Shown one piece after another: positions 17,021-31,896 of a stretch of 59,701 nt of DNA. Position numbers and translations under genes: made by a program. Location of the stretch: positions 1-59,701 of the IMG/VR virus record IMGVR_UViG_3300032218_001256; one strand, 5' to 3'. Position 1 is the first letter of the stretch; every line of letters starts with the position of its first letter. The stretch is from a virus. Its lineage: Duplodnaviria; Caudoviricetes. The notes beneath the pieces are model-generated. The model was not told the origin of the DNA. It worked only from the letters and a program-made list of their open reading frames with translations, and made no database searches.

Positions 17021-17410
17021 TTAATAGAATCCTACAAAGAACTTCTTAATCTTCTGCCAGAATGTGAGCTGTTGATCTTTAAGGATGTATGCATCAGGTG
17101 GTATTGTTGTATGGATGTGTGTTGTTTCAATTGGATCTTCAACACGTAGTCCAAGGTTTAACTCAAACATACCTAATGTCATCTCAGCTCTCCTCTTATT
17201 ACACTTAAATGTTTTCTTAATAAGTGGAATAGCTAGCTTACGCCATGCTTCTGTTTGTTCTGTTGTCAATGTATACACTCTCCAGAATTCTGGTGTGTCC
17301 ATTGCGTCTTGATAGGTTTTACCTATCATTTCCATTTGCATAGTGACCAACTTCCTGTTGATCTCTTCACGTTGTTTTTCTGATCCTGCCATAATGTTAT
17401 TGTATGCCAT
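17021..17410 (-). CDS. Hypothetical protein
   Basis: 129-aa ORF coupled to the polymerase stop codon. Confidence 0.75.
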   Translation of the reverse strand: MAYNNIMAGSEKQREEINRKLVTMQMEMIGKTYQDAMDTPEFWRVYTLTTEQTEAWRKLAIPLIKKTFKCNKRRAEMTLGMFELNLGLRVEDPIETTHIHTTIPPDAYILKDQQLTFWQKIKKFFVGFY

Positions 17411-19359
17411 TAAAATAAACTTAGTTGGTTTGCGATGATTATAGGTCTTTTCTTACCATTGTAATCAATCTTGTTAATAATTCTTTCTGCTTTCTCTATG
17501 TAATAAGAATGATTAATATTATCTAGAGGATGATCCTTAGATAGCTTATTACACACTGTCATTAGCCATTCACCTGCTTCCACTTGTGATATTGGTGCAG
17601 CGTTGGATAGACATTCTGGGTTCTTTACCTTCAATAGCTTCTCACCAGTGTTAGATACATAATATCTAATTAGTTTATTATAGATAGTAGTCTTGCCATT
17701 GAATTTACCTTCATAATGAAAGTCTCTGCTAGCTTTTTGTCTAAGACAGAAATCAAACACATTGCTATGATTACTGATGCTATCAGCAACAGGAATACCA
17801 TCGCAATAATAGCGCTCAAGAGCAATAGGCACCACTCTAGCAGATTTGTTTTTATGTAATTCAAAATCTGTAAGGAAATCACCTTTCTTCTTAACTTCTC
17901 CATTGGTTTTAATTGCTAGATAATCATTAACTGTTGAGAATATAATCTTACTGTAATCTGTACGCTCAAGCTCATACTTAGTTAAGCCACACCACCATGC
18001 ATTAATCTCATACATCTTATCAAGATGTGTCTTTTCTATTCTAATAGTTACACCATCTGTATTAGCTGAGATTACATGTATACCTGCTAGTTCATACGCT
18101 TCAATAAGCATAAGCAAGCTAAGCTCTCCAGTAATAGTAGTGAACATAGTGAGCTGTCTATCGTAGATCCATGACTGCATATCAGAACTTTTACCATATA
18201 CAGAATTGACAGCAAGCTTAAGAGCCCCAACAATACCTGCAATGCGTTTGTTCTTTTTAGCCTGTGGTTTAAGTTCAAGACGCCTCTCAAACATACGCTT
18301 ATAACCAGTAAGAAACTTTTTACCAAGATGTTGAGGATACCTGCCATTATTGATAATAATAGCAGGATAATAACTGCTAACGTCCCAATCAATGATCTCA
18401 AAATGCTCATCAGCCTCAAATACCTCTGGTTTGTTCTCTGTGTGTAAGCCACCTTTAGCAAACGTATAAGTGTTGCCATAAAAATTTATGCTTTCTTTAA
18501 AGTCATCATTAATTCCTAATACAAGACTGTCTATGTATTTTTTGAACTCAATAAGTTGACTAGTTTGAAACTCTATATAATCAGGTCTACATTTTGATAC
18601 AGTTATTTTCTTTCTAAAGAATCCTGTGCGAGGTAAATTAGCATATGTTATTTTCTCCTCTTCACAATAATACTTCTTGATCATCTCATCACCAATCTTA
18701 CTATCAGAATAATTAATACAGTTAATACCAAACTCTTCTTGTATGTCTAGTCTTAATTGTAATTGATCATTTCCTTTATACAAGGGATGTTCTGTATCAC
18801 CTGTTGTAACCTTAAAGAACTCATAGGTTGCCATTACATCATTAATACAATAGTTCATTGTAACATCTATCTCTTCTTGAGTCATGTCACGCTTTGTATG
18901 ATGTATAGGCATCTCCTCAATGTTCTCAAGGTCCATCTCAAACTCTAGTCTCTTCAGACTAACCATACGATTTTTATTATCGTAATGATTAACCTTGAAT
19001 AAATCTATCTGTTTGAACGACAAATCCTCTTCACGATATTCTGGGAACTGTTCATAATTGGCGTCTTCAATAACATCTTGAGCCTTCTGTGCAATCTTAG
19101 CACATATTTCTAGACCTCCAAGTTCATGCCAATCATCATGATTACGTACCACCCATTCTAACACTTGAGCATCAAAACGAAGATTATTATAACCCACCCA
19201 ATAATAGTCTGGCTTATCTTGCATTAGTTTTACAAATGCATCAAAGTTATTCTGCCATTGACTAATTAGGAAATCATAATGCTCATCTTCTTTTGGATTG
19301 TAGACATGTATCAGGAATAACTCCTGCATTGTCTCGATATCATAAATTAATACGTCCAT
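17410..19359 (-). CDS. polB: Family B DNA polymerase
   Basis: ExoI YDIET, ExoII GYNNLRFD, ExoIII YCINDV; motif A DVSSYYP, motif B KLAVNSVYGK, motif C ANTDG. Confidence 0.95.
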   Translation of the reverse strand: MDVLIYDIETMQELFLIHVYNPKEDEHYDFLISQWQNNFDAFVKLMQDKPDYYWVGYNNLRFDAQVLEWVVRNHDDWHELGGLEICAKIAQKAQDVIEDANYEQFPEYREEDLSFKQIDLFKVNHYDNKNRMVSLKRLEFEMDLENIEEMPIHHTKRDMTQEEIDVTMNYCINDVMATYEFFKVTTGDTEHPLYKGNDQLQLRLDIQEEFGINCINYSDSKIGDEMIKKYYCEEEKITYANLPRTGFFRKKITVSKCRPDYIEFQTSQLIEFKKYIDSLVLGINDDFKESINFYGNTYTFAKGGLHTENKPEVFEADEHFEIIDWDVSSYYPAIIINNGRYPQHLGKKFLTGYKRMFERRLELKPQAKKNKRIAGIVGALKLAVNSVYGKSSDMQSWIYDRQLTMFTTITGELSLLMLIEAYELAGIHVISANTDGVTIRIEKTHLDKMYEINAWWCGLTKYELERTDYSKIIFSTVNDYLAIKTNGEVKKKGDFLTDFELHKNKSARVVPIALERYYCDGIPVADSISNHSNVFDFCLRQKASRDFHYEGKFNGKTTIYNKLIRYYVSNTGEKLLKVKNPECLSNAAPISQVEAGEWLMTVCNKLSKDHPLDNINHSYYIEKAERIINKIDYNGKKRPIIIANQLSLF

Positions 19360-19628: not shown

Positions 19629-20201
19629 TCATAGTTGATCAATTAAAGATATCCATCCTGTTAGAATGTATTTAGTTTTAGTGTGACTAACTTGTCCACG
19701 ATGTGTATGAGTCCAATCAGCAGGAAAGAATAATAACTTACCTTGCTCTGCTGGTTCTATATGTTCTTGAAACATAAACTCTGTACCACCATCTTCAACA
19801 TCATTAAGATATATCATCCAAACAAATAGCCTAACTGTTTCTTCTGTTGATTCATAATGCCAAGCCTTAAAACCTTGTTCTGGTAAATATCTTTGGATGT
19901 TATATCCATCAACTTGTACTTTAGTATTTAAGAATATAGGAAACTTATCCATATATCTATACATCTCAATAACCATCTTATCAACAACATCAGTGAGCCT
20001 ATCACCATACAATCTATCAACTATATTCTTAGTGTCTTGATATACATAAAAGTCTGATGAGTGTTTAACATTATGGTCTATTCCTCCACCAATGTATCCA
20101 TCAAGCATGTATTTATCATTAGCCTCAAATATATTAATAATCTCCTCACATTCTTGTTTTGTGAGGAGATCTTTTCTATGTATGAAATCCACTAATTTCA
20201 T
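19629..20201 (-). CDS. 2OG-Fe(II) oxygenase (prolyl-4-hydroxylase-like)
   Basis: 'WHYE' HxE, 'IYLNDVEDGGTEF', 'FFPA..TH.HRG', 'KYILTGW'. Confidence 0.9.
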   Translation of the reverse strand: MKLVDFIHRKDLLTKQECEEIINIFEANDKYMLDGYIGGGIDHNVKHSSDFYVYQDTKNIVDRLYGDRLTDVVDKMVIEMYRYMDKFPIFLNTKVQVDGYNIQRYLPEQGFKAWHYESTEETVRLFVWMIYLNDVEDGGTEFMFQEHIEPAEQGKLLFFPADWTHTHRGQVSHTKTKYILTGWISLIDQL

Positions 20202-21114: not shown

Positions 21115-21378
21115 TTATTCAGACTTTGTTATTAACCTACCATGTGATGTATATCTATTACCTGGATCTATATTATCTATGTAGATGTCTTCTTGTGTGA
21201 TTATTCCAAATCTTTGTTCTTTATTTTGAATAAATCTACTTTGATTTGGCACACCTTCATCATGTGAGTTATAGCTAACAAAAATCATCCATATAAATAT
21301 AAATAATGACGCTAATATAATAAGAAATGTTAACAAAAACGATAACAATTTTATTTCTGCTCTATCTTCTGCTTTCAT
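21115..21378 (-). CDS. Small membrane protein
   Basis: LLSFLLTFLIILASLFIFIWMIFV segment. Confidence 0.65.
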   Translation of the reverse strand: MKAEDRAEIKLLSFLLTFLIILASLFIFIWMIFVSYNSHDEGVPNQSRFIQNKEQRFGIITQEDIYIDNIDPGNRYTSHGRLITKSE

Positions 21379-22025
21379 GATACAATTAGTTCAGTTAATG
21401 TATTTCTTGATCCTAATACAGTTGGAACAGTATTGAATGCTAAACACCATCTATCTTTATCTGTAGACATATCTGGTACAGAGTGTGGTAGATAGCTAGG
21501 AAATAACAATATCTCATGATTAGCAACAGGTATAGTGGCAACAGTTTGAGCATATGGATTACCTGCTAATAAATTATTATTTACTTCAGGTTCTAATCTA
21601 TACACTGTTGACCTATCTACATTAGGTTTATAAAACTTTATCAACGTACTGTTGTCTGGTACATCCATATAATAAACACCTGAGATAACAGAATTGTGAT
21701 GATAGTGCGCATGTGTGCCACCACCATTTACATTCTTATTAACCCAACTCTGTGTTATCTTGATGTCACCATCAATAGCTAGCCCATGTACATAAAAATC
21801 TTTAACCTCTTTCTCAATATAAGCCTTTAGTTTCTCCATACCTGGTAAGTCTAAACAATATGACTCTATTGATTTAAAATGATTAAGATCTTTGGTAATA
21901 TCATTACTATATACATGCTCAAGCTCAAGCTGCTTTAATTTCCATATCTCATCTTGAAAATACTCCTGCACTCTAACTCTGAGTAAAGGAGTGGGAAATA
22001 AACTTATGATTTCTAGATTATCCAT
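21375..22025 (-). CDS. Putative 2OG-Fe(II) oxygenase (TIGR02466-like)
   Basis: 'LFPTP', 'SWVN', 'HYHHNSVISGVYY', 'FPSYLPHSV', 'R..LAFN'. Confidence 0.88.
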   Translation of the reverse strand: MDNLEIISLFPTPLLRVRVQEYFQDEIWKLKQLELEHVYSNDITKDLNHFKSIESYCLDLPGMEKLKAYIEKEVKDFYVHGLAIDGDIKITQSWVNKNVNGGGTHAHYHHNSVISGVYYMDVPDNSTLIKFYKPNVDRSTVYRLEPEVNNNLLAGNPYAQTVATIPVANHEILLFPSYLPHSVPDMSTDKDRWCLAFNTVPTVLGSRNTLTELIVS

Positions 22026-22916: not shown

Positions 22917-23191
22917 TTAAATAATGAGTTAATTTCCCTTTGTTCATCAAGATATGTTCTAATTGCTTTATTAACTAATGATTCAATATCATCTCTTACT
23001 ATTATATCTTTTGATATACTTTGTCCAATAGCTTCAACAATAACATTCTTAAGAAGAATAGACTCATCATCAACTAAGCTTGATTTCATTAAATGAGTAA
23101 TACAAGCAGCATAAACAGCTCTCTGTTCAGCCATAAGAACCAAGTCATCTAATATGGCTTGGTTCACGTCTTTTAATAATAACTTTCTCAT
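22913..23191 (-). CDS. Hypothetical protein
   Basis: 92-aa ORF. Confidence 0.7.
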   Translation of the reverse strand: MRKLLLKDVNQAILDDLVLMAEQRAVYAACITHLMKSSLVDDESILLKNVIVEAIGQSISKDIIVRDDIESLVNKAIRTYLDEQREINSLFK

Positions 23192-23202
23192 AATGCTATA
23201 TA

Positions 23203-23469
23203 TTATCTGTAAGTAGTTTCAATCCTACCAATTCTATGTGTGATGTTTCCTGATAATGTAACAATAGTTGTGTCACGTATCTCTCCATCATTACATATAT
23301 ACCATCCTCCTTTGTTATGTTGTACACATACAACATTAAAGTCTGAATAGTTTACATCAGTGTTATTCTCAGCAACGATGTAAGCACCATTAGACAATTT
23401 GACTTTCTCATGAGAGTCACAACTCATTAATGTAGTGACAATAGCCACTAGTAATACTAATCTTTTCAT
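23203..23469 (-). CDS. Putative lipoprotein
   Basis: MKR + hydrophobic stretch + 'LMSC' lipobox. Confidence 0.75.
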   Translation of the reverse strand: MKRLVLLVAIVTTLMSCDSHEKVKLSNGAYIVAENNTDVNYSDFNVVCVQHNKGGWYICNDGEIRDTTIVTLSGNITHRIGRIETTYR

Positions 23470-23640
23470 TTGAATGAATGTTTAAAGTGTTGAAACAATA
23501 AGAACAGTGAATAATATTACAATTACTATGAGTATAGCAACTTTTAATATGTAAATAATATTCTTCATTTGATTTATTTAAAAGGTTAAAAAATAGATAG
23601 TTTTAATAAGCCAGGTCTATCAACTGAGCACAATGTTATT

Positions 23641-23806
23641 CCCTCTGCATTCAATTGTAATATATATTCAGGTGTGATTTATTCCTTGAATACAACTAGT
23701 GACCAACCAGGAACAGAAATGGTCCATAAATACTATTGCGCAATAGTAGCTACTGGATTCTATATATTACAATTGCTATCCCTTGGGAAGATAGAATGAT
23801 GCATTA
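23641..23806 (-). ncRNA. Twister ribozyme-like RNA, unit B, with a long P5 insert
   Basis: UAA-UGCA-UC..CUAUC-UUCCCAAGG-GAUAG-[15-bp P5 stem + insert]-AA-UGCA-GAGGG. Confidence 0.75.
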
Positions 23807-23807
23807 C

Positions 23808-23957
23808 CCCTCTGCATTCAGTTGTAGCCCCACACCATTCTCCAGTGTTCTTCAAGTTGTCATCTATGTGACAATAGGTCTACAGGTTATATACTATCTA
23901 GCATCGATATAACCAACTACAACTGCCTGTCCTTGGGAAACAGGTTATGATGCATTA
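23808..23957 (-). ncRNA. Twister ribozyme-like RNA, unit A, with a long P5 insert
   Basis: UAA-UGCA-UC..CCUGU-UUCCCAAGG-ACAGG-[9-bp P5 stem + insert]-AA-UGCA-GAGGG. Confidence 0.75.
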
Positions 23958-24091
23958 AAGTCCTTAAGGCATATGGACAAAAGCCTACTCATTATGTACT
24001 GTGTTGAGTTCACGCCAGTAGCTCACTGGATAGTATCACATCTACAATGACTAATATATCTATTAATCCTTCTGTAATACGAGAAGTAATT

Positions 24092-24177
24092 TATTTATCT
24101 CACATATGTATAATATAACCCAAACGTGCATTGTGATTCATACAGTTGACGATTATATATATTCTGTGAGATAAATA
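24092..24177. repeat. Long inverted repeat / stem-loop
   Basis: TATTTATCTCACA (24092-24104) pairs with TGTGAGATAAATA (24165-24177); further inner pairing. Confidence 0.8.
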
Positions 24178-24179
24178 CC

Positions 24180-24308
24180 TTAAAATACCATATAGTATCT
24201 TTCATGCTCTACACATACTCTACATCCCTCAGGACAATTAAGTTGTGCATCTTCTAATGATATTGCTTCATAGAATACATTATCATTCTTATCAATTACT
24301 AAATACAT
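24180..24308 (-). CDS. Small hypothetical peptide (42 aa, not in the ORF track)
   Basis: MYLVIDKNDNVFYEAISLEDAQLNCPEGCRVCVEHERYYMVF, preceded by an A-rich leader containing AACCTTTTAAATAA. Confidence 0.45.
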   Translation of the reverse strand: MYLVIDKNDNVFYEAISLEDAQLNCPEGCRVCVEHERYYMVF

Positions 24309-24555
24309 TTCTTTATTATTTAAAAGGTTTAATGCTATATATTTTCAGTGTTCACCACAATTATAGCTCTTGTGAGAACGATATTATATACTATGATGGT
24401 CTACACTGCACCATATTTACACACAGATGTATATAATTCTGATGCTATTTTACCATAAAAGTTTATTTCTCTCTAATGGACAATGTTAAAATAACATTAG
24501 TTTATATATAAAGGTGGAATGCATTATGGATGCCCACCAACCCACCCTTATATAT

Positions 24556-24585
24556 AAAAGAAAAAAGGGGACGAAGTCCCCCTTT
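24556..24585 (-). terminator. Strong intrinsic terminator
   Basis: GGGGAC-TTCG-TCCCC hairpin followed by TTTTTTCTTTT, directly after the 24589 stop. Confidence 0.9.
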
Positions 24586-24588
24586 AAA

Positions 24589-24987
24589 CTATCCTAATTG
24601 GATAGTGCCTTCTAGCGAGAAGGACGCAGGCGTGTACTGCTTAATGATGGCCTCTTTAACCATCACGCCACCAAGGGAAGCAGTAGGAAGATTGATGAAG
24701 GTTCTAATCTCACCATCTTCATTAGGGCCTTGAGCTATCTTGAAGCCCAAGATGTGTTCAATGCCAACCTTTCCAGCACGAACCTCATCACTCAATGGGC
24801 CTGAACAACTAACAAAGAAATTATCATTGCCCTTTTGAATGCGTATTGAGACCTTCTTGTCAAGATCCTTTAAATTACGCATTGAGGCAAATCCAACAAT
24901 TGCATCAGGGCCTGACCATTCAGCAACAGTTTGGTGCTCTGTAAATTGAGCAACAGAGGTAGACGTGTAAGCTTGTAATTCTAACAT
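24589..24987 (-). CDS. First gene of the leftward arm, hypothetical (likely start MLELQ at 24987)
   Basis: ORF-track N-terminus upstream of 24987 lies in GC-rich, non-coding-looking DNA; AT-rich leader before ATG 24987; own terminator. Confidence 0.7.
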   Translation of the reverse strand: MLELQAYTSTSVAQFTEHQTVAEWSGPDAIVGFASMRNLKDLDKKVSIRIQKGNDNFFVSCSGPLSDEVRAGKVGIEHILGFKIAQGPNEDGEIRTFINLPTASLGGVMVKEAIIKQYTPASFSLEGTIQLG

Positions 24988-25381
24988 GGCATTTAAATTT
25001 AGATTGTTATGGCTACGAGCATGGGGGACAGCCCCAACCCAGCCAAGCACAGGAGGGGTCACAATTGGAAGTACCCAAGCCTCTCATAAACACGAGGGGG
25101 GTGGGGGCTATAAAAAATTTTATAAAATTTTGTAATGTAAAAAACATTGTTCATCTTTGGGGGGGAAAAGGGGGGGCCTTCCTTTTACGTAACCTGAATA
25201 CATCATGATAGATATTCGTTTTAATAGTATTTCTAAGTTTGGAATAGGTTTTGAGTTTAGAGCTAAAGAGTTACATTATTATTCTATGAAGAGATTAGAT
25301 ATTCATCTCTTAATAATTACAATTTCATTTGTAATTACAAAATTTAATATATAATATAGCAATGGAGATTATTCTGAGTCA

Positions 25382-25411
25382 TTGAGATTTGAAGAATAAT
25401 ACATATATTTG
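25382..25411 (+). promoter_or_regulatory. Bacteroidota-type promoter for the rightward arm
   Basis: TTG (25382-25384), 19 nt spacer, TATATTTG (25404-25411), 14 nt before ATG 25426. Confidence 0.75.
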
Positions 25412-25425
25412 CCATCAAACTAAAT

Positions 25426-25788
25426 ATGGAAAACAGTAGCAAGAAGATTATTGTCCAGAAGTTTCTAAGGAAGATAGAGGATAATTATGCTATGGCTGAA
25501 AAGTATTATAGTGTATTGTCTACGATTAATAATTTGAAGCTTACACAGAGAGAGGTGCAGCTTGTAGCATTTACAGCTATACGAGGGAACATTTCTTATT
25601 CTTCTATAAGGGAAGATTTCTGTAAGAAATACAATAGTACAAGTCCTACAATTAACAACATTATATCAAAGCTGAAGAGGATAGGGGTGTTTGTTAAGGA
25701 TGGTTCGAAGATAAAGGTGAACCCTGTGATTATTCTTAATTTCTCTAATGATATAACGTTAGAGGTAAAGATGGAGCATAATGAATAA
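25426..25788 (+). CDS. Winged-HTH DNA-binding protein
   Basis: 'LTQREVQL', 'TSPTINNIISKLKRIG', wing 'KIKVNP'. Confidence 0.7.
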   Translation: MENSSKKIIVQKFLRKIEDNYAMAEKYYSVLSTINNLKLTQREVQLVAFTAIRGNISYSSIREDFCKKYNSTSPTINNIISKLKRIGVFVKDGSKIKVNPVIILNFSNDITLEVKMEHNE

Positions 25789-26958: not shown

Positions 26959-27300
26959 ATGGCAAATCCAAAGAAAACTACATACATCAATACAGAGCTT
27001 GAATGGGCTGAAGAACAATTAGCATCATGGAAGACATACGTTGATAAAAATCCTATGCATGAGTTAAAGGATAGGATTGAGTGGAAACCAACAGCAAAAG
27101 GTGGAGTGATGCCCATGGTGATAGCTTCTATTGAGGCTCAAGGTAAGTTTATACAAGAAACAATGAAGAACTATTTAGCTCTTCTTGAAGTGGTGGATAA
27201 ACTGCGTGAGAAAGAGGAAGCTAAAGTGGAAGTTAGAGGTGGTGCAGGCATGAGCTCTAAGGCTGAGAAATGGTTAAAGCAACGTAATGAAACTACATAA
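26959..27300 (+). CDS. Hypothetical protein, candidate terminase small subunit
   Basis: Helical 113-aa ORF overlapping the terL start; call is by position only. Confidence 0.45.
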   Translation: MANPKKTTYINTELEWAEEQLASWKTYVDKNPMHELKDRIEWKPTAKGGVMPMVIASIEAQGKFIQETMKNYLALLEVVDKLREKEEAKVEVRGGAGMSSKAEKWLKQRNETT

Positions 27301-29311
27301 GATAGATTACAAAGATTGGCTGATGAATCAAAAGCGTCTACCCACACCTGACAGTGCTGAGTATGATGCTTTTTATGCATTTCACGAGGAGCTTTGCAAG
27401 AATGGTTGTATGATGGGAGATACGTACATTAATCCATTCCTATACTGGCATCTAAATGCATGGCATACAGAGATTGACGTTATAGATGATTATGGTAGAA
27501 TAGCACAGAAATATGCTAACCCATCATTACGTGATAATGAATGGATAGTGAGCTCTGAGATTGATAGAGCACAAAAGGAGAAAAAGGGTTTAGTTATCCT
27601 TGGAATCAGACGTTTTGCTAAGTCTGTTCTAGAGGCATCATATGTGTCACATGGAGCAACATTTGATGAGAACTCACAGAACATTATAGCTGGCCTAAAT
27701 GCAGCTGATATAAAGCTAATTACAGATAAGATTGATAAAGGATTAAACTATCTGCCAGAAGCATGGAAATGGCAACGTGTAGAGGATAATTGGAAGAACC
27801 AAGTAACGCTTGGTATAAAGACAAGAGGAGGAGAACGTATTCCTTATTCACAGATATTAATACGTAACCTTGATGAAGGTAATAATGAAGAAGCAATTGC
27901 TGGTACAAAACCTAGGAGATTAATTATAGATGAAATTGGTAAAGGAAATTTCCTACGAGGCTTTCAAGCAGCTGTGCCTGGCTTCACAACACCCTTTGGC
28001 TGGGGCTGCTCACCAATTCTTACTGGCACTGGTGGGGATATGAAGAAATTTATGGATGCCAAGAGTTTAATGTTTGATGTTGGCAACTATAACTTTTTAG
28101 AGTATAACAATGCTAAAGATGAAAAACGTATACATGGACTTTTTATCTCTCACAAGTTTAGGATGGAGGCCAAGTATGAAAGCTCTCTTGGTGCATATTT
28201 AGAGCTACCAAAGAAGAGTGATCTACACAATGTAAAGATGATGGTGAGTGATGAAGAACTTGCCACAAAGATAACTAATGATAATCTTGAAAGGCTTAAG
28301 AAAGCTGGAGATAGACTTGCTTATTTAAAAGAGAAGATGTACTATCCACAAGAAGTGGATGATATATTTTTAAATGAAGACTCTAATATATTTGATATAG
28401 AGGGAGCAAAACGACAAAAGTCCAGACTCCTATCACAGGAGCGCACTGGAACACCTGTTGTGCTATATGATGATGGTGATGGTATAAAGCATGAGTTTAC
28501 AGACAAAATGCCCATCACCAACTTCCCTCTTAAGAATACAGATCAGAAGGATGCTCCTATAGTTATATATGAGTTTCCTGTAGAGAATCCTCCTTATGGA
28601 TTGTATGTAGCAGGGGTTGACCCCTATCGCCAAGGTAAAGCTGCATATTCTACATCATTAGGAGCTGTATACATATATAAAAGGATGCATGCAATTACAG
28701 GAGAAAAGTATCAGGATATGTTTGTAGCTTCATATTGTGCTCGTCCTGATAAGAAAGAAGTTTGGGAAGAACAAGCTAGACTCTTGATTAAATATTATAA
28801 TGCTAGAGCATTGTGTGAGAATGATGAGGTTTCGTTTATTGATTATATGATTTCTAAGAACGATGCTCATTATTTAGAGAAGCAGCCTGAATGGTTGAAA
28901 GAAGTAGTACCAAATACTACTGTGAGACGTGACTATGGTATACATCGTTCAGCAGAGAAGATTAGAGACTTTCTACATGGATGTCTTAAAAAATATACAG
29001 AACAAACTCTTCTTGTTGAAAAGAATGAAGCAGGAGAAGTAATTAATGAGAAGAAAGGTATGGTGAAGATATTCGATCCTATCCTTTTAGAAGAAATGAT
29101 TCAGTATAATGAAGATGGTAACTTTGATAGAATCATTGCAGCTGAATTAGCAATAGCATTAGCTATGAAAATGGATCCTATTATGGGAAGGGTGGGATCT
29201 TCAGGAGATGCTAGAGTAATGGCTATGCATTCAAGAACTAAGAAAAATAAATTGTTTGAGGAGTCCAGAGGGCTTTTTAACAATAGACCTAAACAAAAAC
29301 TGTTTACATAA
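27287..29311 (+). CDS. terL: Terminase large subunit
   Basis: 'RRFAKS' Walker A variant, 'IIDEIG' Walker B, 'TGTGG', nuclease 'GVDPY' and 'NFDR'. Confidence 0.92.
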   Translation: MKLHKIDYKDWLMNQKRLPTPDSAEYDAFYAFHEELCKNGCMMGDTYINPFLYWHLNAWHTEIDVIDDYGRIAQKYANPSLRDNEWIVSSEIDRAQKEKKGLVILGIRRFAKSVLEASYVSHGATFDENSQNIIAGLNAADIKLITDKIDKGLNYLPEAWKWQRVEDNWKNQVTLGIKTRGGERIPYSQILIRNLDEGNNEEAIAGTKPRRLIIDEIGKGNFLRGFQAAVPGFTTPFGWGCSPILTGTGGDMKKFMDAKSLMFDVGNYNFLEYNNAKDEKRIHGLFISHKFRMEAKYESSLGAYLELPKKSDLHNVKMMVSDEELATKITNDNLERLKKAGDRLAYLKEKMYYPQEVDDIFLNEDSNIFDIEGAKRQKSRLLSQERTGTPVVLYDDGDGIKHEFTDKMPITNFPLKNTDQKDAPIVIYEFPVENPPYGLYVAGVDPYRQGKAAYSTSLGAVYIYKRMHAITGEKYQDMFVASYCARPDKKEVWEEQARLLIKYYNARALCENDEVSFIDYMISKNDAHYLEKQPEWLKEVVPNTTVRRDYGIHRSAEKIRDFLHGCLKKYTEQTLLVEKNEAGEVINEKKGMVKIFDPILLEEMIQYNEDGNFDRIIAAELAIALAMKMDPIMGRVGSSGDARVMAMHSRTKKNKLFEESRGLFNNRPKQKLFT

Positions 29312-31896
29312 TGGCAATTATTAGATATACTAAAGATGCGACTATTAGGTATGCGTACCTAAACATCTTTCCTGATCAGTTCAAAACTGAGAAGGAGAAA
29401 ATGGATGAGAGTTGGATCAAGAATACAATGGACTATTTTGCTAATAAGTCCTATGCTGAGTACGTAAAGAATAGAGATACGTTTGTTAAAAACTACGATC
29501 TTGTTAAGGGCATCCTTCGTATGGAGGACTTTTATCAATCAGCTCCTCAGGTGAAAAGCTTCACAGATATGTTGACAGCTGATCTTGAACTACCAGCTTA
29601 TGTAAAGATGTACTCTATCATCACCACACCTTTAAATGAGCTTGTAGGTGAGATATCAAAACGTCCTGATGCATTTAGAGTTAAAGCATTTGATGAAGAT
29701 TCAAAAGCAGAGGAGTTAGAATATAAAACAGGTATTCTTAAAGAGTTTGTAATAAGTACAGCAAAGCAGAAGATTATAGAGCAAGCTAATGCTCAAGGTG
29801 CAGAAATAGATGATGAGCAACTACAACAGATGACGATGCAAGAAGTTCAAGATGAACTTGATTCATATACATCTATAGCAGAGAAATGGGCTAACCATGT
29901 ATTAACATGTCAGAAAGCAGACTTTACATTGAAAGAGAAAAGTGAGGATGCATTTAGAGATATGCTCATCTCTGCTCGTGAGTTCTATCATATATATGAG
30001 GATAACTCTAAGCTAGGATATAATATAGAAGTAGCTAACCCTAAGAACACTTGGTTCCTATCTACACCAGATCGTAAGTATGTATCAGATCCAACAGGAC
30101 GTGCTCAAGGTGCGTATGCTGCTGGTACTGTGCAGGTTATGGAACTTTCTGAAATCATTGAGAGTATTCCAGACCTTACTAAAGATGAGATTGATCACTT
30201 AAGATCATCTTTACAAGACTATGGACTTATCAACGTTCGTGAGTCTAACCTTGGTAATCCTAATGCAGGTAATGGTATTGACTCAATTCAATATGACACA
30301 TATGATCCTCTTGTTCTTCAGACTCGTATGATGATTGAGTCTGAGATGAAACAGAATGATGATGGCTTACAAGACTTTTTAGGACTTACATCAAATGTGT
30401 CTTCATTTGGATACAAGTATGTAGTAGTAAGAGCTTATTGGATATCAAAGAAGAAAATTGGTAAGCTTATCTATCTTGATGAAATGGGCAATGAGCAATC
30501 TATGCTTGTTGATGAGAACTATAAGAGTGGTACAATACCTACACAGATATCATTAGAATGGGGATGGATTAATCAATGGTATCAAGGTATAAAGATTGGA
30601 CCAGATATCTACCATATCAAACCATTCAAGTTATTAAACTACTGCCCTATCATTGGACTAGTGCATGAGATTAAGAACACAGAGGCAAAGTCTTTAGTAG
30701 ACTTAATGAAACCATTCCAGGTTCTTTATAATGTTTGTATGAACCAGCTTTACAAACTTCTTGAGAAAGAAATTGGTAAGGTGCAACTAATGTCTATTAG
30801 ACATATTCCTATTCCTAAAGATGGAGATGCACAAGATGCTCTTGATATCTGGGAGATGGAAGCACGTAATAGAGGTGTTGTATTTATCGATGATAGTCCA
30901 GAGAACTTAAAATCCCCAAGCTCATTCAATCAGTTTAGGGATATTGATATGACACGTACGCAAGAGATTCAATCTCGTTATACATTAGCTCAACAATTAA
31001 AGAATGAGTGTTGGGAATTAATTGGTATGTCTAAACAACGTTTAGGAGCTGTGTCAGCTTCTGAAACTGCTACAGGTACTAATACTGCCATAACACAAAG
31101 CTATTCGCAGACAGAGCCATTGTTCGTAGCACACGAGTATGTGTTAGGTCAGTTATATCAAGCTATTATAGATGCATCTTTATATGTAGAATCTAGAAAG
31201 CCTCAATCAACAATATCATACATTACATCTGAAGGAGAATCTGCATTTGTAGAAGTTAATGGAACAGATCTTAAATTTAGAGATCTTAAAGTTTTCTTGA
31301 CTAATCGTCCAGAAGATCAGAAGATGTTCAATGAGATTAGAGGATTATCTCAAGCTGTTCTACAGAATGGTGGAAGCTTACATGACATCATTGAGCTTTA
31401 TTCTACAAACTCTGTTCGTCAGATGAAGAAAGTATTCAAGACTCTTAAAGAACGTCAAGAAGAGCTTGAGAATCAGAAAATGCAACAACAACAACAGCAA
31501 ATTGAGCAACAACAACAAATTGCTCAAGCTCAAATGGAACAGGCTAAACAAATGCAAGCTGAGAAAATAGCACATGATGATTATCAAAATGAGTTAGATA
31601 GAATCAATAAGGTTCAGATTGCAATGATTGCAGCTGAATCTAAAGCAGGACCATTGTCAGATATTGATACATCTGGAACTGCTGATGTTCTTGAAATGAC
31701 TAAATTAGCTTCTGAAGAATCAAGAGCAACTAAAGACTATAACAAATCTTTAGATGAGATTCGTAGTAGGGATCAACAACATTATGATAAAATGCAAATA
31801 GAGCGTGAAAAGATGCAAGTCGATTTAAAAAATCAAGATAATGACTTACAGATTGCTCAGATAAATGCACGTAATAGAGCTTCTAAAAGTAAGTAA
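29311..31896 (+). CDS. Portal protein
   Basis: 861 aa directly after terL, C-terminal Gln-rich coiled coil, crAss-like gene order. Confidence 0.9.
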   Translation: MAIIRYTKDATIRYAYLNIFPDQFKTEKEKMDESWIKNTMDYFANKSYAEYVKNRDTFVKNYDLVKGILRMEDFYQSAPQVKSFTDMLTADLELPAYVKMYSIITTPLNELVGEISKRPDAFRVKAFDEDSKAEELEYKTGILKEFVISTAKQKIIEQANAQGAEIDDEQLQQMTMQEVQDELDSYTSIAEKWANHVLTCQKADFTLKEKSEDAFRDMLISAREFYHIYEDNSKLGYNIEVANPKNTWFLSTPDRKYVSDPTGRAQGAYAAGTVQVMELSEIIESIPDLTKDEIDHLRSSLQDYGLINVRESNLGNPNAGNGIDSIQYDTYDPLVLQTRMMIESEMKQNDDGLQDFLGLTSNVSSFGYKYVVVRAYWISKKKIGKLIYLDEMGNEQSMLVDENYKSGTIPTQISLEWGWINQWYQGIKIGPDIYHIKPFKLLNYCPIIGLVHEIKNTEAKSLVDLMKPFQVLYNVCMNQLYKLLEKEIGKVQLMSIRHIPIPKDGDAQDALDIWEMEARNRGVVFIDDSPENLKSPSSFNQFRDIDMTRTQEIQSRYTLAQQLKNECWELIGMSKQRLGAVSASETATGTNTAITQSYSQTEPLFVAHEYVLGQLYQAIIDASLYVESRKPQSTISYITSEGESAFVEVNGTDLKFRDLKVFLTNRPEDQKMFNEIRGLSQAVLQNGGSLHDIIELYSTNSVRQMKKVFKTLKERQEELENQKMQQQQQQIEQQQQIAQAQMEQAKQMQAEKIAHDDYQNELDRINKVQIAMIAAESKAGPLSDIDTSGTADVLEMTKLASEESRATKDYNKSLDEIRSRDQQHYDKMQIEREKMQVDLKNQDNDLQIAQINARNRASKSK

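Follow-up and report, generated by a model that had tools for sequence, protein, structure and literature searches.

Twister ribozymes are a self-cleaving class described by Roth et al. in 2014 and summarised in PMC5408937. According to that source, stems P1, P2 and P4 are essential, whereas P0, P3 and P5 are optional, and the backbone is cut beside P1 at a U-A step in which the A is highly conserved and the U less so. P2 comprises four pairs, the pseudoknot T1 consists of three C:G pairs between L4 and L1, and in T2 a conserved GC of L2 pairs with two L4 residues. A guanine (G45 in the rice ribozyme, G48 in env22) acts in catalysis together with the cleavage-site adenine (PMC5408937). Activity is reported to survive the deletion of P1 (PMC5408937), a stem also called dispensable in PMC11662667; according to the latter, natural twisters accept many imperfections in their stems, whereas their pseudoknots and catalytic residues are less tolerant. 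Bacterial twister and hammerhead ribozymes are enriched near each other and near phage genes, and such neighbourhoods led to earlier ribozyme discoveries (PMC10085705). Here we describe two units in a 59,701-nucleotide (nt) stretch of DNA from an uncultured tailed virus (IMG/VR record IMGVR_UViG_3300032218_001256; the whole stretch is referred to as the window). Judged by their sequence, they are likely, with a probability of roughly 75%, to be divergent self-cleaving ribozymes of the twister class, type P1, with a big P5 insert and a tight tandem arrangement.

Unit A (23957–23808), a single G (23807) and unit B (23806–23641) follow one another on the minus strand. A preliminary description, made from the letters of the window, had read the same two units one G apart, and the strings it listed as shared and the P4 and P5 stems it found to differ while staying complementary are all present in the sequence and the alignment. 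The features of the tandem are given below; R1 is a covariance model introduced further on.

23808–23957, minus strand: unit A, a complete twister-type unit of 150 nt (sequence, covariance model R1, fold)
23807, minus strand: spacer, a single G (sequence)
23641–23806, minus strand: unit B, a complete twister-type unit of 166 nt (sequence, covariance model R1, fold)
U23957^A23956, minus strand: predicted scissile bond of unit A
U23806^A23805, minus strand: predicted scissile bond of unit B
23950–23954, minus strand: 5' strand of P2 in unit A, UGCAU, pairing with AUGCA at 23813–23817
23926–23944, minus strand: P4 hairpin of unit A, with CCUGU at 23940–23944, the loop UUCCCAAGG at 23931–23939 and ACAGG at 23926–23930
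23819–23925, minus strand: P5 of unit A, a stem CAGUUGUAG/CUACAACUG around a three-hairpin insert
23808–23812, minus strand: GAGGG of unit A, its GGG complementary to the loop CCC (candidate T1 pseudoknot)
23776–23794, minus strand: P4 hairpin of unit B, with CUAUC at 23790–23794, the loop UUCCCAAGG at 23781–23789 and GAUAG at 23776–23780
23652–23775, minus strand: P5 of unit B, a 15-bp stem CAAUUGUAAUAUAUA/UAUAUAUUACAAUUG around a 94-nt branched insert
23646–23650, minus strand: 3' strand of P2 in unit B, AUGCA, followed by GAGGG at 23641–23645

Both units start with UAA, and in both P2 reads UGCA/UGCA plus a fifth distal pair. A pairwise alignment of A and B shows TAATGCATCAT, TTCCCAAGG and TGAATGCAGAGGG to be identical, whereas P4 and P5 differ in sequence yet keep their pairing; besides the 5' core and the UUCCCAAGG loop, the units have AAUGCAGAGGG in common. 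The string TTCCCAAGG occurs exactly twice in the window, at 23931–23939 and 23781–23789, both times on the minus strand, compared with a mean of 0.31 in shuffled sequences (3 of 100 shuffles reach two). The 11-nt string AATGCAGAGGG is also found twice (23808–23818 and 23641–23651), which by itself is weak evidence, as 25 of 100 shuffles reach two occurrences when one mismatch is allowed. Folded alone, each unit forms P2, P4 and a branched P5 in both the minimum-energy and the centroid structure (z-scores of −1.45 for A and −1.87 for B). Each P5 carries a branched insert of 88–104 nt, so the units are not the "minimal" ribozymes of the preliminary description.

The two units are members of a large, sequence-coherent, conserved family with covarying stems, borne by phages. 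More than 150 viral contigs, at the least, contain the element, as retrieved by two narrow DNA patterns; they are uncultured, mostly freshwater-type phage contigs. The strict pattern (TAATGCATCAT, 5–9 nt, TTCCCAAGG; set 1) gave 34 matches in 33 viral contigs of 10–180 kb, and it also hit seven contigs binned into metagenome-assembled genomes of several phyla. The second pattern, made of the loop and the base of P5 only (set 2), matched at least 120 stretches. The parts left free in the patterns are present all the same. All 34 set 1 matches have TGCAGAGGG 41–162 nt downstream (searched within 220 nt), and in 32 of them the P4 strands are complementary at five of five positions, with 14 different P4 sequences. 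Among the 118 set 2 matches listed, P4 pairs at five of five positions in 113, a YAA-N5-C 5' half is present in 112, and the full P2 complement followed by GAGGG in 101.

Covariation was assessed on 61 non-identical units of at most 128 nt, out of 127 distinct units found by script, by counting a specified structure. P2 is paired in 100% of cells and P4 in 99.3%, percentages that are partly built in, since the script accepted units only with P2 5/5 and P4 4/5 or better, and which on that account detract from the case. The real evidence consists of the compensatory changes and the unbiased counts from sets 1 and 2. Changes on both sides were seen in three of five P2 pairs, in all five P4 pairs, in all ten P5 pairs (95.1% paired) and in all five P1 pairs (63% paired). 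The CCC:GGG pairs of T1 (98.9% paired) are essentially invariant, with double-sided changes in none of three. Over all helices 23 of 28 pairs changed on both sides; no shuffle out of 500 reached any of the five measures, and slid controls were paired at 31–49%. Several types of P2 exist: UGCAC/GUGCA in the majority, UGCAU/AUGCA in this window, UGUAC/GUACA and UGCGU/ACGCA, with CACAC/GUGUG and CCUAU/AUAGG as extra types in relatives that carry a loop insert. The preliminary description had declared in advance that homologues losing UAA, CCC, GGG or P2 would speak against it; the homologues keep UAA, CCC and GGG, and their P2, P4 and P5 covary.

A custom covariance model had also been proposed as a check. 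Our model R1, for which relatives from other contigs were the sole input, picks out just two places in the window, namely unit B with 80.0 bits (E 7.9e-20) and unit A with 52.2 bits (a local match), and its next best window match scores 13.6 bits. On 154 fetched loci it gives 175 matches at E ≤ 0.001. These data bear directly on the notion that the units are a chance resemblance or a recent local duplication devoid of function. The count of AATGCAGAGGG, not significant in the window when taken alone, is in keeping with that notion. It is contradicted by the more than 150 unrelated contigs that carry the element with compensatory changes, by window units that differ in P4 and P5 yet keep their pairing, and by scores of 80 and 52 bits against a best background of 13.6 from a model trained elsewhere. 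Chance is excluded by the comparative data, and the likelihood we leave to this explanation as a whole is vanishingly small.

The closest described system is the type-P1 twister (RF03160), as portrayed in PMC5408937. The order of elements is the same, namely N-A-A, P2, P4 with a U-CCCA-A loop, an optional P5, P2' and G-A-GGG, in agreement with the preliminary description, which had recognised UAA-P2...P4...P2'-GAGGG as the twister order. N-A-A lies directly 5' of P2 in both units. In the 61 relatives the two A columns (A9 and A10), the loop UUCCCAAGG and G-A-GG either never vary or are conserved to 90% or more. N-1 is U in at least 90% of them; three CAA variants are acceptable because this position is less conserved in twister (PMC5408937). 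Between the junction and the 3' G-A-GGG there are the four Watson–Crick pairs of P2, and U, CCCA and A are all found in UUCCCAAGG of both units. GAGGG is present in 34 of 34 set 1 matches, with rare AAGGG, GAAGG and GAGUG variants elsewhere. The first G of AAG is constant in all real members, the 50 loci with a change there being 49 chance matches and one decayed copy. As in twister, a conserved A stands 3' of the presumed cut, a conserved G stands before A-GGG, and the loop CCC is complementary to the 3' GGG. By analogy with PMC5408937, G23812 would occupy the position of the general-base guanine, a role that this GAGGG guanine may share. P3, optional in the class, is absent, and each unit has one extra U in L4, at the 5' end of the loop; the preliminary description was right on both counts. 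The phage-related setting with other ribozymes nearby is likewise shared with known twisters (PMC10085705; PMC6765202).

The family departs from type P1 mainly around P2 and its loops. The residue that follows the four P2 pairs, C in most units and U in the two window units, covaries with the purine that precedes P2'. The two form C:G or U:A in units with several kinds of P2 and linker, with three U:G and no C:A combinations, and the residue stays C in eight units whose last loop residue is A. Because of this covariation and this constancy, the residue forms a fifth P2 pair and does not pair with the loop, whereas canonical twister has no such distal Y:R pair. The UC/GG pseudoknot of the preliminary description dissolves in this way: its U or C belongs to P2, as the partner of that purine, which leaves one T2 pair at most. 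Where twister has a conserved G-C, L2 of the family reads Y-C-A-U; its loop ends in GG instead of GC and has one extra U. Further differences are P5 inserts of up to ~190 nt, arrays and tight tandems, and the lack of P1 in about half of the units.

A number of observations weigh against the assignment of the units to the twister class. The canonical 2-bp T2, with its conserved GC in L2, is not reproduced: one candidate C:G pair remains, between the next C and the first G of the loop GG (U:G in one relative, L162), and the aligned sequences do not support a second T2 pair in the family. One published search descriptor, given in PMC11662667, writes the T2 strand of L2 as "NC". L4 with its extra U and P2 with five pairs instead of four are also atypical. 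Since the CCC and GGG residues never vary, T1 has no support from covariation; of the pairing proposed in the preliminary description the complementarity stands (C:G in 61/61, 61/61 and 59/61 relatives). P1 is absent from both units, with one contiguous flank pair in unit A and none in unit B. This shortage had been noted before and attributed to the abutment of the units. The first part was correct, but abutment is not the only cause, since 63 of the 127 units in the family have 0–1 pairs; at least four contiguous pairs occur in 43 of 127, compared with a mean of 8.9 and a maximum of 17 in a flank-swap control.

Further points on the same side concern curated models and folding. Rfam at the gathering threshold matched no family in the window, and at E ≤ 10 no twister or twister-sister model matched in 23400–24200. 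The 65-nt relative L003 aligns end to end with the Rfam twister-P1 model at UAA, P2 and GAGGG, and its score is 18.8 bits versus a gathering threshold of 67.2. The prediction that standard models would overlook the element is borne out by these searches, and twister and twister-sister matches were not found at gathering in 24 related loci either. No other Rfam family explains the window units; the region matches at E ≤ 10 were only a plant miRNA and a Tetrahymena snoRNA, both at chance level. Folding z-scores are modest, −1.28 to −1.87 for single units and tandem. In the minimum-energy fold of the 320-nt tandem, the P2 5' strand of unit A pairs with the P2 3' strand of unit B, and the P2 3' strand of A forms a small hairpin with the P2 5' strand of B. 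This cross-unit pairing arises because A and B have the same P2 strands. According to the folding model, the cross-paired form is a possible inactive conformer dependent on the order of folding.

RNA libraries were considered as well. Most of the stretch is contained in one DNA run only, perhaps that of the source sample, and six RNA runs contain 6–7% of the sampled words. Four RNA runs, from freshwater or lake-water metatranscriptomes, each hold 1–3 contigs over parts of unit A or B, with a likeness of 85–100%; these are assembled contigs, which show neither the transcription strand nor the RNA ends. One of them bridges the tandem junction of a relative uncut, and an adapter-flanked fragment has its ends at 23779 and 23644 and thus away from the predicted cuts; both add to the points against cleavage at face value. 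Among contig ends without loose letters in the four RNA runs, none coincides with a predicted cut, and uncovered flanks are uninformative. The contigs count neither for nor against cleavage.

Taken at face value, such uncut contigs would fit a conserved structured non-coding RNA that uses the twister scaffold without cleaving, for instance a protein- or ligand-binding or RNA-stability element with P5 as its variable module. It would also fit that the family scores below every Rfam ribozyme threshold, that T2 is non-canonical, that the P5 inserts, large and hypervariable, have more structure than shuffled sequences, and that one insert exists outside a ribozyme scaffold. A non-cleaving RNA would hardly be expected to conserve all twister active-site residues (N-A-A, G-A-GGG and U-CCCA-A) or to hold the first G of AAG invariant. 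Hatchet ribozymes, whose self-cleavage is known, are found close by on the same strand, and the tolerance of natural twisters for many imperfections (PMC11662667) takes weight from the departures listed above. We regard a non-cleaving RNA as possible and unlikely, and the twister-class assignment as the better description of the units.

The P5 insert is hypervariable, from 0 to ~190 nt in the family. The base of its stem, CAAUUGUAAU or CAGUUGUAAU, is widely conserved, whereas the interiors fall into 105 clusters among 120 inserts, with only 15 pairs, and there is no single conserved "cargo". Over 107 inserts the median z-score is −1.27, and 30% lie below −2 (mononucleotide shuffles). The insert of unit A is also common to L079, with compensating changes in two hairpins by reading of the alignment. 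A tRNA-like reading of this three-hairpin insert was considered and is unsupported, as ARAGORN found neither tRNA nor tmRNA in the window. The P5 interior of unit B (23662–23765) is nearly identical in L157, where it sits in a separate stand-alone hairpin just 3' of a unit whose 3' core is GAGUG, an arrangement that RNA-library contigs contain too. Comparison of L157:5380-6000(+) with 23590–23775 (minus strand) of the window shows the modules in a different order, and the window hairpin at 23590–23630 lies in L157 upstream of a loop-insert unit. Judged from its letters, a tRNA-like T-arm and acceptor-end sequence follows the unit-B-type hairpin in L157.

A second kind of insert is found in L4. 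In a sub-group (L158, L163, L164, L166, L169, L036/L105, L161, L162, L167 and L157/L160) a conserved insert of ~90–260 nt stands where the extra U lies, separating the loop from the P4 5' strand, and the loop reads UCCCAAGA. Such inserts occupy the extra-U position in 12 of 17 loci found with the loop variant. They have recurring internal motifs, and at least one internal stem covaries (GUAG/CUAC versus GUGG/CCAC). The domain belongs to no Rfam family, and at E ≤ 10 nothing meaningful was found for the domain of L166. It could be a regulatory or gating domain.

The placement of the units follows the genes around them. Of 127 distinct units, 115 lie outside open reading frames (ORFs) of at least 80 amino acids (aa). 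In 104 of 109 units the closest downstream ORF shares the strand of the unit, as does the closest upstream ORF in 98 of 105. In 24 of the 154 loci the model matched two or three times, in each case on a single strand and with tens to hundreds of nt between the matches. L153:6027-6243(+), on a 112-kb contig binned as Sediminibacterium sp., is an independent tight tandem whose units differ in P4 and P5 and are separated by AAA (3 nt), with an ORF starting ~40 nt downstream. In L165:1425-1499(+) no more than ~10 nt separate the GAGGG of a unit from the start of a tRNA gene, so that the ribozyme would lie just 5' of the tRNA, and L162:4623-4950(+) holds a tmRNA gene (RF00023, 71.9 bits) and two tRNA genes on a viral contig with a loop-insert unit.

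The Hatchet ribozyme (RF02678) is an unrelated fold with which the units share a phage intergenic setting of the same kind. In 3 of the 24 loci searched at the gathering threshold it was found at 73–81 bits, 1–2 kb from units of the family and on their strand, and there is none in this window.

L022:8518-8654, minus strand: Hatchet ribozyme
L036:5635-5767, plus strand: Hatchet ribozyme
L161:7490-7624, plus strand: Hatchet ribozyme

Arrays, hypervariable centres (105 clusters among 120 inserts) and modules rearranged between relatives, as between the window and L157, might also be expected of a recombination or mobile-element site acting at the DNA level, with conserved ends, a variable centre and stems that are inverted repeats read as DNA. 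Such a site would not need an orientation that follows the flanking genes. The G-U pairs in P2, P4 and P5 would turn into A-C mismatches in the opposite strand, conservation falls on loops and junctions and not on inverted repeats, the long-range CCC/GGG complementarity has no rationale in a DNA site, and stem sequences are free to change as long as pairing is kept. A DNA-level element is a very improbable explanation of the family.

The window is a fragment with a completeness estimate of ~52%. Minus-strand genes extend up to ~24300 and plus-strand genes run from ~25400 on, and the GC skew changes sign at ~24000. Both units lie inside a ~710-nt minus-strand stretch with no ORF of at least 40 aa, flanked by a 42-aa and an 88-aa ORF, all on the minus strand.

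24180–24308, minus strand: upstream 42-aa ORF, co-oriented and, among the listed ORFs of at least 40 aa on this strand, the last one ahead of the units
~23482–23568, minus strand: short hydrophobic ORF seen by eye in the sequence, within the ~710-nt stretch and preceding the 88-aa ORF
23203–23469, minus strand: downstream 88-aa ORF, co-oriented, lipoprotein-like by its signal-like N-terminus ending in Cys
17410–19359, minus strand: DNA polymerase
27287–29311, plus strand: large terminase
29311–31896, plus strand: portal

No PHROG match was found for the 88-aa ORF. The replication-side module also holds two 2OG-Fe(II) oxygenase-like genes on the minus strand, at 19629–20201 (phrog_61, 2.3e-36) and 21375–22025 (phrog_81, 1.3e-38). 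A strong intrinsic-terminator-like hairpin with a U-run lies at 24563–24585 (minus strand), directly after a 157-aa ORF (24589–25062, minus strand) and ~600 nt upstream of the units. Promoter-like sites in 23000–25500 are uninformative (17 versus 13.7 expected). A blastn search of 23600–24000 against 50,697 deposited phage genomes gave no match.

By analogy with characterised twisters, the tandem probably cuts its transcript at two defined sites. The minus strand would be transcribed as part of a leftward polycistronic transcript, and units A and B would fold one after the other during transcription, each into P2, P4 and P5, with the loop CCC docking on the 3' GGG. The backbone would then be cut 5' of the conserved A, at U23957^A23956 and U23806^A23805. 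Three products are predicted: an upstream (leader) RNA that ends with a 2',3'-cyclic phosphate, unit A as a free RNA of 151 nt from A23956 to U23806, and the downstream mRNA of the small genes, which would begin with a 5'-OH and a compact, structured ribozyme. Cleavage would uncouple the fates of the upstream and downstream RNA. A risk specific to the tandem would be misfolding caused by the identical P2 strands of A and B.

Tandem hammerhead and other ribozymes are known from satellite, retrozyme and viroid-like RNAs (PMC6765202; PMC7761336), where two head-to-tail cuts would excise a unit-length RNA. An excised RNA with 5'-OH and 2',3'-cyclic-phosphate ends is the feature that the phage tandem would have in common with them. 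In contrast to those systems, A and B differ in P4 and P5 and are not a multimer of one replicon; they lie in an operon of a double-stranded DNA phage, with no sign of circles or of RNA replication. The T-variant twisters of Schistosoma mansoni retrotransposons, described in PMC8501958, are likewise divergent natural variants outside standard models, with a processing role for the RNA of a mobile element. They belong to a eukaryotic retrotransposon and are likened to the phage units by description. A further-reading proposal is that the tandem is a release device. The freed 151-nt unit A would have ends joinable into a circle by a host RtcB-type ligase, the P5 inserts would be a payload of exchangeable small-RNA modules on a self-processing scaffold, and the L4-insert relatives would be gated (allosteric) versions. 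The payload part draws on the fact that one module is also a stand-alone hairpin in L157. We consider this proposal quite doubtful.

The twister class, its type P1 with an optional P5, its phage context and its neighbouring ribozymes are already known. What appears to be new is a sequence-coherent subfamily with altered L2, L4 and T2, a frequent lack of P1, very large P5 and L4 inserts and abutting tandems. The subfamily was not found in Rfam or in the papers searched on tandem, phage and variant twisters or under its motif strings, and the supplementary alignments of twister papers may hold it. As the curated models miss the family, current ribozyme censuses of viral data are incomplete. The relatives also constitute a natural experiment on what twister tolerates, from the absence of P1 and a P2 of five pairs to a reduced T2, an added loop residue where an entire domain can be accommodated, and very large P5 inserts. 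The arrays and abutting tandems lead to testable predictions of RNA products, such as the free 151-nt RNA. Should cleavage be confirmed, R1 would make it possible to annotate the family systematically. The role of twisters in bacteria and phages is still described as open in PMC5408937 and PMC6765202, and confirmed cleavage would make this family a tractable system for learning why phages cut their own transcripts.

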